Part shown: piece after piece, positions 6,682 through 44,603 of the stretch
Layout of the letters: the number at the start of each line of letters is the position of its first letter
Position numbering within the stretch: position 1 is the stretch's first letter
DNA from: Thermoplasmatota archaeon
GTDB lineage: Archaea; Thermoplasmatota; Penumbrarchaeia; Penumbrarchaeales; Penumbrarchaeaceae
Assembly (NCBI GenBank): GCA_965234725.1
Contig: CBDDUX010000003.1
Location: 64,001 to 128,000, forward strand
DNA length: 64,000 bases
Direction: 5' to 3'
The notes under the pieces: model-generated
The model's database searches: none
Told to the model about the DNA's origin: nothing
The model's input: only the letters and a program-made list of their open reading frames with translations
Made by a program: the position numbers and the translations under genes

Positions 6682-7965
6682 ATGGCACGACGGGGTATAA
6701 GGGAATACGATGCAAAGAGAGTATTTTACAGAATGATGCCTAAGTATACCGGTGAGAAGGTGACCTTCGATATCATGCCCATATTGGTGGGTCCGGATAC
6801 TGATTTAGATATGCTTGTGGATGACAATCCCTGGCTTGAGAACATCAGATTGGTTGTGAAACCCGATCAGCTTTTCGGAAAGAGGGGGAAATCCGGTCTG
6901 GTCCTCTTGAACTGTTCTTTCGATGAAGCAAAGAACTTCATCAAGCAGAAAATGGGTAAGAATGCCACTGTTGGAAAGGTAAAGGGTAGACTTGAATATT
7001 TTCTAGTGGAACCATTCCTTCCTCATGACCTTGAGTATTATATTGCAATGAAGATGGATGCTGATGGGGACCATATCTATTTTTCAACTCAGGGAGGAGT
7101 GGATATTGAATCTGTCTGGGAGACAGTAAAGGAGGTCACCATCGGACCCCTGGATGATCCAGAACTTGAAACTAAGGATCTTCTCAAGGATAATTCAGCC
7201 CAGGAAAAGAAATTACTTACTCCTTTTCTCAAGGGTATGTACAAATTCTTTGTTAACCATGATCTTGTCTATCTCGAGATAAATCCATTCACCATCGTTG
7301 ATAACAAGATCAAAGTTCTCGACATGGTTGCCAAGGTGGATGACACTTCCATGTGGCAGGATATTGGTACATGGGATTTCAAAGAGTTCCCGGAACCCTT
7401 CGGCAAGGACCCCACCCCTGAAGAAGCATACATCAAATCACTGGATGAGAAGACAGGAGCTTCCCTTAAATTGACGATCCTCAATCCGGAAGGCCGAGTA
7501 TGGACAATGGTAGCAGGTGGGGGAGCATCTGTTGTATATGCGGATACCATAGTGGATATGGGTTTTGGAAAAGAACTTTCCAATTATGGTGAATATTCAG
7601 GTAATCCATCCACCGAGGAGACATACCTTTATGCTAAAACGGTCCTCTCAATGATGACAAAAGAGCCCCATAAGACCGGAAAAGGCAAGATACTGATAAT
7701 CGGAGGAGGTATCGCAAATTTTACTGATGTCGCTAAGACATTCACGGGTATCATTCAAGCACTCCGTGAATATGCTGACCAGATGAAGGAGGTTGGGGTC
7801 AGGATCTATGTTCGAAGAGGCGGTCCCAATTACAAAGCCGGTCTGGAGAATATGAGAGAGGTTGGCTCAGAGATTGGTATACCCATCAAAGTGTTCGGTC
7901 CGGAAGTTCATATGACCTCAATTATTCCAATGGCTTTAAAAGATGAAGGAAAGGGGGTGAACTGA
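6682..7965 (+). CDS. aclB: ATP-citrate lyase, ATP-grasp/citrate-binding subunit
   Basis: KPDQLFGKRGK, MVAGGGASVVYAD, NYGEYSGNP, GGGIANFTDVAKTF, RRGGPNY. Confidence 0.93.
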   Translation: MARRGIREYDAKRVFYRMMPKYTGEKVTFDIMPILVGPDTDLDMLVDDNPWLENIRLVVKPDQLFGKRGKSGLVLLNCSFDEAKNFIKQKMGKNATVGKVKGRLEYFLVEPFLPHDLEYYIAMKMDADGDHIYFSTQGGVDIESVWETVKEVTIGPLDDPELETKDLLKDNSAQEKKLLTPFLKGMYKFFVNHDLVYLEINPFTIVDNKIKVLDMVAKVDDTSMWQDIGTWDFKEFPEPFGKDPTPEEAYIKSLDEKTGASLKLTILNPEGRVWTMVAGGGASVVYADTIVDMGFGKELSNYGEYSGNPSTEETYLYAKTVLSMMTKEPHKTGKGKILIIGGGIANFTDVAKTFTGIIQALREYADQMKEVGVRIYVRRGGPNYKAGLENMREVGSEIGIPIKVFGPEVHMTSIIPMALKDEGKGVN

Positions 7966-19133: not shown

Positions 19134-21143
19134 TTACTCACCAGATACCTCTAGCCATCTGTATGCTGATCTTGTATAATCCTGGAAATAACCCCTGTCG
19201 AAGGAGTTACCAGTGCAGAGATAGGATACTATCCTATACAATCCTGGTCCACCCTCTTCCTCTTCCAGCATGAAAGATACAGTGAATGTCTTTTTTTCAT
19301 TCGATGATATATTGAAAGAATGATCCAGTGAGGATATATGGTCACCTCTCAGGTTGTAGATATTGATCCCGAGAAATGCCTCCACATCGTCCTCATCGGA
19401 CAATACTGAATATTGATGCTTCAATGTATCCTTGAATCCGTCACCATCCTCGTCGGTTGTGGTGCAGGAAAGAAGGGCAGTATCGAAATGGAGGACTTTT
19501 GGGGCTCCTGCACCTTCGAGATGATCGAAGTACGTTGAAAGCAGAGCCGTCCATGATGTGTCTTTTGCAAACTTCAGATCTGAATAATCATTGTTCTGGT
19601 CCATAACATCCCTGAAATCCGGCGCGTAAATGGATAATCCCCTCAAACCCTCGATGGACCAACCTCCAACCTGAGTTGAATTGAAGTTCAATACAGCATT
19701 GCTGATATCGTCAAGAACGGTCTGTGACAGTTCTCTGATCGAAGATGTTTCCGTCAATTTCTGTATATTCTCAACGAAATCGAATAGATCGACAGCATCC
19801 GAAGTATGTCCCTCCTGTATGGGTTGAGCATACTTTCTTGCTATGTTCATATTATATAGTTCAGCGGACCCTGATTCTGCAATGGTATTTGAAAGTGTAT
19901 TCAAGGACCTTGCAATGGCATCCATTCCCTTCAGATCATAAACCCCCATGCTCATAGAGGTTTTTGAGCCCAGCTTTCCCATTTGGTCCAGATAGTCAAC
20001 CATGAATAGTTCCGAAAGAGAAGCGGGAGAGATGTATGGATCCTGTTTGAGCTTTCCAAGTGTGAGATAATCCCAACCGTATGCAGGCTCGGTGATCTCA
20101 GATCCTACCATAAGGTCGCAATATGGTGAGATCTCATAAGCTACCTCGAATGCAGACATAAGGCATGCATCGAATCCTAGAATATCCAGATCCCTTCCTA
20201 AATGGGAGGTTATCCTATCCAGAGCCCATCCCAGCTGGTCAATTTTCATGACCTCCTCCTCCTCAAGACTCTGTTCCCAACAGATCCCATCGGTTCCCGA
20301 ACCATGGTTCCATAGGATAAGGGCATTATGATCGGCAGGGTAATTATCCATGGACCAAGTAGCAAAATCCACAAGTTCCTCGGGGTCGGCCGAATCGATC
20401 TCGCCGATATCACTTAACTCCTCTGATGTGATCATTTCACTATCATCATCAAGGTCGATCCTGAACCTCTTTGCAGTTGTCCAATTGCCGTCGGTCCTAT
20501 CATCTTTGGGTGACAGGCTCTCCCATCTATCCAGTTGTACTATAATATTCACAAGGGAAGAAGATCCGATCGACTCCAGCTCATTGATATCTTTCAAAGC
20601 CCAGGATTCAAGATCACAATCGCTCATATAGATCATGAATGTCCATTTGGGAGGGGGTCGATAGACCTTCTCAAATGAGATACTGTCAGAGATATAATCA
20701 GCCTTTTCAGCCGTGATATTTACATTGAAGGTGCCCTCATCATTAAAAGAAGGCAATTCCACAAGTACCTCGAAATTACCATTGGGATCTGAAACAGACC
20801 TGAATTTTTTATCGGAGATACCAGGTATACTCACAGCGACTGATGCGCCATCGATGTCTGCACCCTTTTGGGTCTTGACCTCTCCGGAAAAGGTCATTCT
20901 TGAACCTGAGATCAGCAAGTCAGGACCATCTTTGATGGTAAGAACGAGTTCGGTGTTCTTCTCCTTTCCATCATCTCTTGACGATCCTTGATCATTTATA
21001 TCATAGACAATGTAATAAAAACCAGGGATCGTGAGAAGAAGGAACATCAGAAGTATGACCACTATGACATATAATGCTCTGGATGGAGATCTGGCCTTGA
21101 CCTCAATGGCTCTAATGCTCCTTCCGGTATATCCATTGGTCAT
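19134..21143 (-). CDS. Membrane-anchored clostripain-family (C11) peptidase
   Basis: N-terminal TM helix, Ig-like segment, WTFMIYM..DLE, LILWNHGSG (His), LGFDACLMSAFEVAYE (Cys); start adjusted from 21278. Confidence 0.85.
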   Translation of the reverse strand: MTNGYTGRSIRAIEVKARSPSRALYVIVVILLMFLLLTIPGFYYIVYDINDQGSSRDDGKEKNTELVLTIKDGPDLLISGSRMTFSGEVKTQKGADIDGASVAVSIPGISDKKFRSVSDPNGNFEVLVELPSFNDEGTFNVNITAEKADYISDSISFEKVYRPPPKWTFMIYMSDCDLESWALKDINELESIGSSSLVNIIVQLDRWESLSPKDDRTDGNWTTAKRFRIDLDDDSEMITSEELSDIGEIDSADPEELVDFATWSMDNYPADHNALILWNHGSGTDGICWEQSLEEEEVMKIDQLGWALDRITSHLGRDLDILGFDACLMSAFEVAYEISPYCDLMVGSEITEPAYGWDYLTLGKLKQDPYISPASLSELFMVDYLDQMGKLGSKTSMSMGVYDLKGMDAIARSLNTLSNTIAESGSAELYNMNIARKYAQPIQEGHTSDAVDLFDFVENIQKLTETSSIRELSQTVLDDISNAVLNFNSTQVGGWSIEGLRGLSIYAPDFRDVMDQNNDYSDLKFAKDTSWTALLSTYFDHLEGAGAPKVLHFDTALLSCTTTDEDGDGFKDTLKHQYSVLSDEDDVEAFLGINIYNLRGDHISSLDHSFNISSNEKKTFTVSFMLEEEEGGPGLYRIVSYLCTGNSFDRGYFQDYTRSAYRWLEVSGE

Positions 21144-42888: not shown

Positions 42889-43362
42889 TCAGATCTTTGA
42901 AAGGTAACTGTGTTTTTTTCCCATCCTTCTTTTAATGAATTCCTTGTGTTCCATCATTTTGATCCTCTTTCCCTTCAATACACTTGGAAGATCGTTGATC
43001 TTTATACCTTCCTCTGTCTCAGATCTATTGATGTGCACAGGGTCTCCATGTTTCATTATGAGGATCGTATCAGGTCCATGGGGGACATAGAAGGAGATCT
43101 CTTTAAAATAGATACGTCTGTCCACAATGGTCCAGATCGGAAATCTGCGCGATCTGACAGTTATATGATCATTGCATACGACAACCCTATCTCCCAGGAA
43201 GGACCATATCACCAAATAGAGTATGGATGCCATTCCCACCAATGCCAGAGCTATACCATCAACTATCAGATTAAGGGGATAATGTAGGACCACACCAAAG
43301 ACCATGATCATGATAAGAAAAATGGCAACTACCGAAAGGGAGATAGCCCTGGTCCTTTCCAT
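42889..43362 (-). CDS. Hypothetical protein with two TM helices and a PH-like soluble domain
   Basis: Two N-terminal hydrophobic helices followed by a beta-rich segment. Confidence 0.55.
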   Translation of the reverse strand: MERTRAISLSVVAIFLIMIMVFGVVLHYPLNLIVDGIALALVGMASILYLVIWSFLGDRVVVCNDHITVRSRRFPIWTIVDRRIYFKEISFYVPHGPDTILIMKHGDPVHINRSETEEGIKINDLPSVLKGKRIKMMEHKEFIKRRMGKKHSYLSKI

Positions 43363-43414
43363 ATAACGGAATGATCCGGGACCGCTATATGTTTTTCCCG
43401 TATCTATCCCTTAA

Positions 43415-43752
43415 TGTATGAAAATTCATGAAAGCGGGTTGTAATCCTTTTTCATACACCCGCAAAGCAGTGTCTATAATTGACGATCTGTTATGCTGGG
43501 TTTCGAAGTCACATAACTTATGTGATTGGCGAGACCTTGAAATTGCTGAACCCTATCCAATCTCTCTGAATTTCAAGGCATGCACAATAGTGCTTTCAAT
43601 TGACGCTCTATTGTTGCTATGGATCGAAATTCCGCATCATATCGAATTGACGAAAGGAATTTACGAGCTCCTTTGAAAAAGGAGTGACTTACGAAAAAAC
43701 CCGCTTATCATTTTCATCCTATGTTGTGAGCATTTGACTCATGAGGGTTTTT
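43415..43752 (+). ncRNA. Candidate structured non-coding RNA (or MITE-like element) of unknown family
   Basis: At least six local stems, a 9-bp end-to-end helix, four G-U pairs consistent with the + strand, three AATTGACG motifs, an upstream TATATG and a downstream T-run. Confidence 0.5.
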
Positions 43753-43757
43753 AGTAT

Positions 43758-44489
43758 CTATGACATGATCTCCATCATGAATGCGTGGCCCTCTTCTCCA
43801 TTTACCTTCAAGGTGACGATCCTCGAACCTTTTTCGGAACCAGTGTAGATCTCGACGATATTTCCAACGAAGACCTCTGACCTATAGCTGAGGAGTAGAT
43901 CTGCGGATCTGTTGATCCCCCTACTATTCAATGAGAGTCCATCGAAACTCCATCTGACATATTCTGTGTTGTTTACATGCCCATTCATGTCTATGGAACT
44001 TTCACAGACCTTGATCGTATCCACTAATTCCAAATTTGAAGGGGAATTCTTTCTGGATATAGTGTCGAAATTCCTTCTGCCCTTGGAAGGAAAATTAAAA
44101 TCAAGGTCCTCTGTTCTTATCGGTCTCTTATTCTTTATATCTAGGACCATCCAAACCGATGTTGCCTTTAGTATTTCCTGATCATTCCTGTCAGTCAATG
44201 TGAATTCCCTGTAAGCTCTCAGATCATCAAATCCGGAAGGGATCGTGAAGAGAGTGCAGTTTTCGTTCCAGAGAGGCGATCGGTCCACTTTCATTCGAAT
44301 ATCAACAAGGACCCAGATCCGGCCGTTCTTGATCATCCAACCCATTCCCAATCCCATTTTCTCCGCATGATCTGAGGCAATTTCCTGCAGATGCTTCATG
44401 AGATCATGGATCCGCATCCTTCCATCAGGACCACATTCATAGGTTCTTGGTATAAGGTCACGTTCAAGGGCAGCTATCATGGTCATCAT
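43758..44489 (-). CDS. Acyl-ACP/acyl-CoA thioesterase (FatA/B-like double hotdog fold)
   Basis: LQEIASDHA, WVL, REF, ATSVWMVLD, IDMNGHVNNTEYVRW. Confidence 0.85.
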   Translation of the reverse strand: MMTMIAALERDLIPRTYECGPDGRMRIHDLMKHLQEIASDHAEKMGLGMGWMIKNGRIWVLVDIRMKVDRSPLWNENCTLFTIPSGFDDLRAYREFTLTDRNDQEILKATSVWMVLDIKNKRPIRTEDLDFNFPSKGRRNFDTISRKNSPSNLELVDTIKVCESSIDMNGHVNNTEYVRWSFDGLSLNSRGINRSADLLLSYRSEVFVGNIVEIYTGSEKGSRIVTLKVNGEEGHAFMMEIMS

Positions 44490-44603
44490 TCCTTTATACT
44501 CGGAAAATGAATATAATGATAGCATCCAACCATATTAATCGATGTGTGAGACATGGTAATGTTAAATAACCGCTATGGCTTTCAGGACGCTGGGTGGATG
44601 TTA

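Follow-up and report, generated by a model that had tools for sequence, protein, structure and literature searches.

A short structured repeat of Thermoplasmatota is probably a mobile, MITE-like derivative of IS110-family insertion sequences

What is the densely folded intergenic unit of 338 nt that lies at positions 43415..43752 (+ strand) of a 64,000-nt stretch of archaeal DNA? The stretch, called the window here, is positions 64,001 to 128,000 of contig CBDDUX010000003.1 from a Thermoplasmatota archaeon (assembly GCA_965234725.1). [quoted passage not shown] The evidence supports the alternative. The element is multi-copy, is absent from orthologous sites, and has both ends in common with insertion sequences (ISs) of the IS110 family; a dedicated RNA gene is not what the locus primarily is. 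With a probability of roughly 0.8, we consider it a mobile, MITE-like, non-autonomous IS110-family derivative. IS110-family elements encode DEDD recombinases that are guided by a bridge RNA or seek RNA.

The genome that contains the window (G000; 3.54 Mb, 114 contigs, 97.65% complete) was searched for further copies. Eight copies with the same limits were found, namely the window copy and strong matches on seven other contigs. In the BLAST alignments, every copy started at window position 43415 and ended at 43752, so the coordinates given in the earlier note are the exact limits of the repeated unit. Six copies were complete (on contig C3, which holds the window, and on C31, C63, C69, C27, and C26), and two were cut by contig ends (C100 and C28). 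The copies were located in unrelated intergenic contexts. They differed from each other by whole blocks. The commonest form was ~190 nt long, as at C63:27140-27328. Short forms measured 185-210 nt; the window copy, a long form of the family, had 149 nt extra, and the C31 copy (553 nt) had more.

Sites without the element were found at two loci. At the window locus, contig C22 of the sister genome G004 had the two flanks adjacent, with 3 nt between them and the element missing. Identity in these alignments was 87% on the left (query 1-713) and 86% on the right (query 1053-1799). Two further studies (runs X2 and X6) contributed one contig each, in which position 43414 was joined to 43754 and GTG replaced 339 nt; the flanks of these contigs were ~97% identical to the window. 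At the second locus, G004:C10 read hairpin-C-T10-AATTCTCC, whereas G000:C31 read hairpin-C-ATTTT-[element]-TTTTTTTT-AATTTTC. This comparison indicated that the element had landed within the T-run of a terminator-like hairpin. At two other loci, orthologous sites were filled in the two species: C69 corresponds to G004:C1, and C27 to G004:C9. The flanks of the C63 copy were not found in G004, which gave no empty-site comparison there.

No target duplication could be resolved at either empty-site locus. The earlier note had expected a MITE to show many copies with target-site duplications; the copies were there, without resolvable duplications. An 8-bp GTATCTAT pair (D6) was considered as a target duplication and rejected. 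A distance of 7 nt separates it from the left end, and most of its left copy is found in the sister genome too, which lacks the element. IS110-family elements are excised without a scar and recombine at a short core common to element and target, as the consulted portion of PMC11208160 describes, and the lack of a resolvable duplication therefore suits this family. It does not suit a classical (DDE-derived) MITE: inverted repeats are present, one of them ~35 nt from the end, but the fixed-length duplication expected of such a MITE was not seen.

The insertion sites were compared over 27 full-length copies. T-T was present at -3 and -2 before GTATG in 25 of them, and also at all three IS copies described below. 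By eye, a G+C-rich hairpin preceded at least 10 of the 27. Relative to the upstream open reading frame (ORF), 13 copies had the same orientation and 8 the opposite one, and 6 had no such ORF; there was no clear bias. An orientation bias first suggested by the copies in G000 (7 of about 10) was not upheld on this larger set.

The distribution of the element was then determined. A DNA search detected it in 15 of the 23 other genomes of the archaeal family to which G000 belongs, and gave one weak 23-nt match in 17 genomes outside the family. A covariance model built from 18 short copies had matches in 21 of the 24 family genomes, which covered all seven genera and all eight high-quality genomes. 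Positive genomes had from 1 to 46 matches, and three genomes had none. In an even sample of the phylum Thermoplasmatota (151 genomes), 13 of the 16 family genomes besides G000 were positive, compared with none of the 134 others. Nine public contigs contained the conserved pattern. Eight were titled as metagenome-assembled genomes (MAGs) of uncultured Thermoplasmata or Thermoplasmatota, and one as Methylocystis. The Methylocystis contig (locus L052) belongs to a bacterial MAG, and its agreement with the 24 specified bases is probably due to chance. Among the 10 sequencing runs listed, those with the locus in their DNA came from metagenomes labeled marine sediment, sediment, or salt marsh; one had no label. 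Viral contigs scanned with the pattern of hairpin P3 (see below) gave no match.

The ends of the element were matched to complete ISs. IS110-family transposase domains were present in 10 of the 24 family genomes. In two of these (G006:C22 and G017:C108), a 412-aa IS110-family gene was located between the element's own termini. The IS proteins had the domains PF01548 and PF02371 (E 1e-29 to 1e-21). In the + orientation of the element, these ISs start with GTATGAAGATNGGYGTGTG (one A/T difference in G017) and end with CACACNCCNATCTTCATNCTATGTTGTGAGCC..GGCTCATGAGGGTTT. The element itself has the 5' end TGTATGAA and the 3' end GAGGGTTT, and the G000-type ends are GTATGAAAAT and ATTTTCATCC. Its first ~12 nt are those of the G006 and G017 ISs (GTATGAAGATNG, with one A/T difference in G017), and its last ~45 nt align with the same ISs, including the subterminal repeat and the CTATGTTGTG box. 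A third IS, G002:C95, is a 41%-identical relative of the same layout and divergent sequence, with the end GGTACGAAAATCC and the box version CATGCGTGAC. The full lengths of the three ISs are 1508, 1506, and 1667 nt (G006, G017, and G002, respectively). One metagenome scan added three relatives, 46-51% identical, whose left ends were laid out in a similar way.

The transposase gene is antisense to the + strand of the element. Read in transposase orientation, the left end is formed by the hairpin with its T-run and the right end by GTATGAA. Two parts of the parent IS were kept in the element. One is the right-end inverted repeat (GTATGAARAT), which in the window is GTATGAAAAT at 43416..43425 (+). 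The other is the ~45-nt left end, comprising the subterminal repeat, the CTATGTTGTG box, a hairpin, and GAGGG with a T-run. In the window, the subterminal inverted repeat is ATTTTCAT at 43710-17, and the conserved box follows at 43719-28 (together 43710..43728, +). The terminal hairpin P5 (GTGAGCATTTGACTCAT plus GAGGGTTTTT; 43726..43752, +) is terminator-like on the + strand and corresponds to the outer left end of the partner IS. Both the IS copies and the 18 short-form copies in alignment A1 had this hairpin at their end, a few in degenerate form, and its stem was compensated between copies. Element columns G1-A7 were invariant in the same alignment. The element contains no transposase; modular hairpins, called the cargo here, take the place of the gene.

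The inverted repeat of the ISs is ~20 bp long; its distance to the terminus is 3 nt on the right and about 35 nt on the left. Such an end extension might be a conserved target, a possibility raised for this family in the part of PMC11187229 consulted. The empty sites argue against it here. P5 was within the inserted DNA, and the three empty-site observations (two loci, from the sister genome and the contigs of two studies) indicated that the 35-nt extension is mobile DNA. Tandem arrangements were also found. The end of the G017 IS abuts a complete short element, and the end of the G002 IS abuts a solo P1 hairpin. A second IS110 clade was observed as well, at G000:C42:3697-4887 (L079). Near-identical copies are present in G004 (L080-L082); their ends begin with GTTTCCCTACGTGTTAT, and they lie at contig ends in several assemblies.

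The non-coding regions of the three ISs were folded and compared with their ends. Each region spans ~170-185 nt from the left end to the start codon (L078 2179-2376, L077 1611-1780, and L086 2223-2400), and its predicted fold has a long closing stem and two arms. The 3' side of the second arm contained a segment equal, in the same sense, to the IS's own right end plus AAA: ATACCAAAT, CATACTAAA, and GTACCAAA (9, 9, and 8 nt, respectively). These segments changed together with the ends across the three ISs. By analogy, they match the left-donor-guide geometry described for IS621 in the consulted text of PMC11208160. On the 3' side of the first arm, ACCAAAC (G017) and ACTAAAC (G002) equaled the left flank plus AAAC, and G006 had an A-run. 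A third segment, in the second arm, equaled a box that lies 25-34 nt in from the left end; its sequence is CACAACATAG in G006 and G017 and TCACGCAT in G002. In the non-coding regions, the reverse complement of the CTATGTTGTG box is found again, and the two covary across the three ISs. We infer from these three IS copies that the segments may act as guides. Right end, internal box, and outer left end are all retained in the window element. A recombinase-RNA complex specific for such ends could therefore act on it in trans.

These data suggest the following mechanism. The recombinase and bridge RNA of a full-length relative would recognize the joined ends in trans. The element would be excised as a small circle. 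The circle would then recombine at a T-rich core, possibly TTT, typically in the oligo-T tract after a gene's terminator hairpin, and would leave no resolvable duplication.

Several observations weigh against this reading. Mobilization in trans is conjectural, and no circle, transcript, or transposition event was observed. A tblastn search of the G000 assembly with three proteins of the matching clade (clade A) detected no transposase of that clade, in a MAG that is 97.65% complete; repeats often fail to assemble. The sole IS110 gene of G000 (C42) has unrelated ends, and its identity to the three clade-A proteins is 22-24%. Only 3 of 37 genomes of the class yielded the matching clade, compared with 21 of 24 family genomes for the element. 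The closest IS in the same genus, that of G002, has diverged ends, which leaves the G000 subfamily without an exactly matching partner among the ISs found. The exact core is hidden by the T-run, and at the window copy, whose site is not a T-run, 3 nt (GTG) of the empty allele have been replaced. The internal-box match is not next to the core and falls outside the IS621 donor geometry. The same hairpin modules also occur in arrays without IS110-type ends. Finally, a plain MITE could do without a cargo under such strong constraint.

Next in likelihood comes an explanation that would add to mobility. The cargo may be the important part, as a + strand structured RNA family that presents GACGARA loops to a protein or RNA, with IS110-type ends as only one of its vehicles. 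Possible roles include a regulator, a sponge, a 3'-UTR (untranslated region) stabilizer, and a terminator. We hold this tentatively, at somewhat less than even odds.

Folding was compared with that of shuffled sequences. The + strand had a minimum free energy of -102.3 kcal/mol (z -5.66), and 0 of 100 shuffles folded as well. The - strand reached -99.1 kcal/mol (z -5.42), nearly equal to the + strand. Folding was thus well beyond chance on both strands, and the equality speaks against a role tied to the + strand. All stems listed in the earlier note were located in the sequence. These included TGTATGAAAA/TTTTCATACA (I6; 10/10 pairs), CCTTGAAATT/AATTTCAAGG (I8; 10/10 pairs), AAGCGGGTT/AACCCGCTT (I12; 9/9 pairs), ACAATAGTGC/GCTCTATTGT (I13), AAATTCC/GGAATTT, and GCTCCTTT/AAAGGAGT. 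The three AATTGACG loops were also confirmed at 43478, 43598, and 43645. In the whole window, AATTGACG occurred 6 times against 1.70 expected, and none of 100 shuffles reached 6. The three occurrences outside the element are at 7469 and 9320 (+) and at 19752 (-).

RNAalifold analysis of the 18-copy alignment gave five helices. The first is P1, whose 5' arm is the terminal inverted repeat and whose 3' arm is TTTTTCATAC (43448..43457, +). Its pairs 2-9/42-49 were 100% paired, and A-U to G-C covariation was observed in 7 of 27 copies. The second is a CCC/GGG helix that encloses P2. P2 itself (GCAAAGCAG/CTGTTATGC; 43462..43496, +) is the third; it has a 17-nt loop that ends with AATTGACGAT, and double-sided change was found in 4 of its 7 pairs. 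The fourth is P3. Its 5' strand TTTCGAAGTCAC (43501-12) and a 22-nt loop segment occupy 43501..43534 (+), with the motif variant GATTGGCGAGA here, and its 3' strand GTGACTTACGAAA (43684..43696, +) contains a conserved bulged A. P3 has 11 pairs, 98.0% paired, 5 of them with double-sided change. The earlier note had drawn a local hairpin of GGTTTCG/CGAGACC with AGTCACAT/ATGTGATT in this region. Comparison did not bear out that pairing as conserved, since it pairs TTTCGAAGTCAC (43501-12) with GTGACTTACGAAA (43684-96). The fifth helix, P4, joins the A-run/CCC strand at 43696..43702 (+) to GGGTTTT at 43745-43751 in the terminal T-run, with double-sided change in 6 of 7 pairs.

Covariation was measured on 27 copies aligned to the model (alignment A2). 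In this alignment, which is fitted to the model and so favors structure, 97.3% of cells were paired, compared with 88.0% in shuffles. The covariation score was 0.272 compared with 0.101, and 21 of the 36 pairs had double-sided change. None of 500 shuffles reached any of these measures, and slid controls gave 26-54% pairing. An unfitted alignment showed the compensations GTCAC/GTGAC, GTCCC/GGGAC, CTTGC/GCAAG, and CTTTC/GAAAG. The loops were also constrained. Among 44 distinct motif-bearing hairpins of P3 type, loops of 23 nt (32), 22 nt (9), 24 nt (2), and 20 nt (1) were found, so that 43 of the 44 had 22-24 nt. The loop started with G in 39 of 44 and ended with a GACGARA-like heptamer; the remainder was 42% alike. 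The compensatory pairs, which no shuffle equaled, together with the constant loop length and the conserved GACGARA 3' part, indicated that the hairpins are under real selection.

Which strand would be read is less clear. A hairpin and T-run close the + strand, as expected for the RNA explanation. The earlier note had argued for the + strand from G-U pairs. The counts in the 27-copy alignment agreed at first sight (22 GU/UG compared with 9 AC/CA), but the argument is weak, because without one inherited column they became 11 and 9. A separate hairpin census gave 19 G-U-type and 3 A-C-type mismatches, and 14 of the 19 came from that same column. The wobble counts thus rest mostly on one column, and both strands fold. 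No promoter common to the copies was found. The TATATG upstream of the window copy, which the earlier note had pointed out, belongs to the flank; the region is kept as TATATT in the sister genome without the element, and TATATG was not seen upstream of the other printed copies. It is not an element promoter. The orientation to the upstream ORF, given above, was not clearly biased either. The cargo showed no antisense match to the IS leader RNA in six duplex tests (z -0.27 to +1.04).

Known RNA classes were also considered. Rfam gave no match at gathering thresholds in the whole window and none at E up to 10 in 43200-43950, and a search of the three IS loci at E up to 1 found nothing relevant. 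The cargo is therefore undescribed in Rfam. Readings of the loops as a K-turn, K-loop, or C/D box were rejected, as by eye the GA pairs and boxes were not consistently present. The hammerhead-like letters CGAAGUC were set aside, as there was no Rfam ribozyme match.

The 149 nt that are exactly absent from short-form copies form a module of their own (43535..43683, +), which lies within the P3 loop directly after the GACGAGA-type motif. It comprises a hairpin H (43535-43578), a P2-like hairpin (43582-43617, loop AATTGACGCT), a P3-like hairpin (43624-43666, loop AATTGACGAAA), and a small hairpin (43667-43685). The orthologous copies G000:C27 (without the module) and G004:C9 (with it) differ by exactly this module, with a 2-nt GA ambiguity at the limits. 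The module was 100% identical to the window copy in G000:C31 and 96.0% identical (6 mismatches) in G004:C9. For the host element of G004:C9, identity to the window copy was 85.7% in the 5' part and 76.7% in the 3' part. The module is far better conserved than its host, suggesting that it moves or converts independently of the host.

The same modules, in the same nested order, formed the arrays without IS110-type ends on G000 contigs C38, C77, C114, and C60 and at G001:C89. Some arrays lay right after terminator T-runs and were bounded by H hairpins. At G000:C38:40415-40680 and G000:C77:41330-41790 (minus strand), P2, X, and P3 modules bounded by H hairpins followed T9 terminator runs directly. 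By eye, the two bounding H hairpins of C38 are the same 47-nt sequence. A partner gene for these variant elements of C38 and C77 was not found. Module X, ~65-70 nt long, recurs between P2 and P3 (G000:C69, C31, and C100) and in the arrays. It consists of a hairpin TCTTGACATC..GGCAAGG and a hairpin GCAGAAAAC..AGCCGAAGGCT..GTTTTCTGC, whose stems look compensated.

A precedent for an RNA cargo exists: Ssr9 of MITEPpu9 is an expressed small RNA (sRNA) carried as cargo, according to the consulted part of PMC12288879. Our best guess makes the present cargo a structured, hitch-hiking module, read single-stranded and most likely as + strand read-through RNA that ends at its own hairpin and T-run. An RNA-level, loop-presenting role may follow from the same features. 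A bolder version would make P2, P3, H, and the 149-nt unit an undescribed kind of structured module. It would be read single-stranded, most likely as RNA, its 23-nt loops would present GACGARA to a dedicated partner, and it would spread both as IS110-derivative cargo and by a second route, through nested insertion and in arrays without IS ends. We think this version unlikely, if well short of negligible.

Could the hairpins be guides? The element might be a bridge-RNA-like or TIGR-like array (named after the TIGR systems of PMC12045711) with spacers in its loops, or a MITE that encodes its own bridge RNA. The constant loop length with variable sequence between conserved anchors, and the physical link to IS110 ends, would suit this idea, and the consulted part of PMC12045711 describes TIGR stem-loop arrays and IS110 bridge RNAs as related architectures. 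However, when the loops and interior were compared with the element's own flanks, 0 of 18 copies scored above the flanks of other copies, and none of 14 variable loop parts matched its own genome above shuffles. The only Nop-domain gene was one 384-aa ORF on C5 (match C5:14025-14447), which is not beside an array. A 23-nt loop is too short for two 8-12-nt spacers plus boxes, and the hairpins are antisense to the transposase orientation of the partner IS. We consider a guide function highly improbable.

We give slightly less credit to a stationary, single-purpose ncRNA gene whose copies would be paralogous RNA genes. The strong folding, the terminator-like 3' end, and the lack of an Rfam match that would contradict novelty were in its favor. 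It is already contradicted by the empty sites, that is, by exact presence/absence polymorphism at two loci. The ends common to transposase-bearing ISs, the unrelated intergenic contexts, and the wide range of model matches per genome, with three genomes lacking any, speak against it as well.

A relative of single-strand transposons fared worse still, and we regard it as barely plausible. It might be a palindrome-associated transposable element (PATE) or another IS200-IS605 derivative, or resemble the repetitive extragenic palindromes (REPs) and bacterial interspersed mosaic elements (BIMEs) that are moved by REP-associated tyrosine transposases (RAYTs). The absence of target duplication, the subterminal hairpins, the intergenic position after genes, and the BIME-like mosaic of modules would be in keeping with this origin. 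CGTC, the reverse of GACG, tags one REP superfamily in the consulted text of PMC3733652, but in the CGTC REPs described there the stems measure 8-9 bp and the loops 4-5 nt, with the tag at the stem foot, whereas here the motif is inside 17-24-nt loops. The Y1 transposase domain PF01797 had no match in G000, with positive controls responding in 6 of 14 genomes, and no TnpB domain (PF07282) scored above the cut-off in G000. The ends match an IS110-type IS instead.

A SINE-like (short interspersed nuclear element) RNA copied back at its transcript limits by target-primed insertion into T-runs is scarcely credible: limits that run from G (a purine) to a T-run, copies inside T-runs, and a reverse transcriptase in the genome would fit it, but the one reverse transcriptase of G000 belongs to a group II intron with Rfam D1-D4 beside it, such genes are present in only 6 of the 24 family genomes, no 5'-truncated copies were seen, and the limits are better accounted for by a DNA transposon with identical ends. 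The intron lies on G000:C47 (L076 821-2550), with D1-D4 at 821-989 and 1027-1116, followed by a 468-aa reverse-transcriptase ORF at 1144-2550.

The IS110-derivative reading was also compared with known systems. Its closest described analogue is MITEPpu9/ssr9, the sole such MITE-like element in the literature examined. Among the papers listed in topical searches, none dealt with the present element or with an archaeal IS110-derived MITE; relatives of the partner IS might already appear in the bridge-RNA catalogues that supplement PMC11208160 and PMC11187229. In the consulted portion of PMC12288879, MITEPpu9 is described as an ssr9 sRNA gene between end boxes (A'/B') like those of ISPpu9, an IS110-family element of Pseudomonas putida KT2440. 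It has a 43-bp left box with a target-like palindrome, a 16-bp right box, a shared AG core, and a tandem IS-MITE arrangement. Its minicircles require the transposase, as seen with a transposase deletion mutant. Like MITEPpu9 so described, the present element is a short non-coding unit between IS110-family ends, with a long structured left end and a short right end. Both occur as solo copies and in tandem with the IS and carry a structured-RNA cargo, which is predicted here. In the present element, as in MITEPpu9, a short shared core would take the place of a target duplication. Unlike MITEPpu9 as presented there, the element belongs to an archaeal host (uncultured Thermoplasmatota) and targets oligo-T after terminator hairpins rather than REP sequences. 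Its modular, nested cargo shows no complementarity to the leader RNA of the IS; Ssr9, by contrast, is complementary to Asr9. The copy number is much higher, and the element is spread over a whole family of genera.

The partner IS resembles IS621/IS110 (PMC11208160) and the IS1111/IS110 seekRNA elements (PMC11187229), as far as the consulted portions of these papers describe them, in having PF01548 plus PF02371 and a two-armed upstream non-coding region. The guide-like segments with the same sense as the right end plus a short core, and site-preferring insertion without a resolvable duplication, are further likenesses. The partner IS mixes traits, with an upstream non-coding region as in IS110, subterminal repeats as in IS1111, and an outer extension of ~35 nt, not the 7 nt given in the consulted text of PMC11187229. 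Unlike IS621 as described there, it has a core that is apparently TTT/AAA, not CT, and one of its guide-like segments matches an internal box. The window element, unlike the IS621/IS110 elements in that description, contains no recombinase or recognizable bridge RNA.

Other folded repeats share part of this design. BOX elements of Streptococcus pneumoniae and enterobacterial BIMEs are intergenic, multi-copy, folded mosaics with variable internal modules between conserved terminal modules. BIMEs and REPs are linked to RAYT (Y1) transposases; no transposase partner is known for BOX elements. Like these, the present element is a mosaic of few module types; unlike these, it shows no sequence relation to them, and no RAYT/Y1 transposase was found in G000. 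TIGR arrays, in the consulted account of PMC12045711, share with it tandem hairpins, variable palindromic stems, short conserved loop motifs, and an evolutionary link to IS110. Unlike the arrays described there, the element has no adjacent Tas/Nop gene, its loops are too short for two spacers, several hairpin types stand in a fixed nested order, and its copies are dispersed and mobile.

In the window, the element sits between two minus-strand ORFs. One encodes 157 aa (42889..43362, -), has no Pfam match, and has its start toward the element. The other encodes 255 aa (43758..44525, -) and is a thioesterase homologue with acyl-ACP thioesterase domains; its stop codon is 6 nt off the 3' end of the element. 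The only ORF within the element (43428-43676, +; 82 aa, ATG start) has no Pfam match and is probably spurious, though gene callers may annotate it. On the minus strand, window 43686-43706 reads GCGGGTTTTTTCG, and its T6 run separates the thioesterase gene from the 157-aa ORF that lies downstream. The run is not found in populations without the element, and a polar effect on the downstream gene is possible.

For annotation, these results mean that copies should be marked as repeats, not as RNA genes or as the 82-aa ORF. The copies also break assemblies, as seen in the two at contig ends. IS110-family recombinases with bridge or seek RNAs are under development as genome-editing tools, and natural non-autonomous elements show what a minimal donor looks like: here about 190 bp, retaining ~12 nt of one IS end and ~45 nt of the opposite one. 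In the element family, seven genera of uncultured Thermoplasmatota from sediment supply dozens of natural variants, together with a preferred terminator T-run landing site and a partner IS that combines IS110 and IS1111 traits. Covarying stems, loops of constant length, and a module better conserved than its host are features that a plain selfish MITE would not need. If the bolder version of the cargo idea is true, the family would be a self-similar, two-level system of mobile RNA modules that also provides natural minimal (~190-bp) donors for a bridge recombinase.

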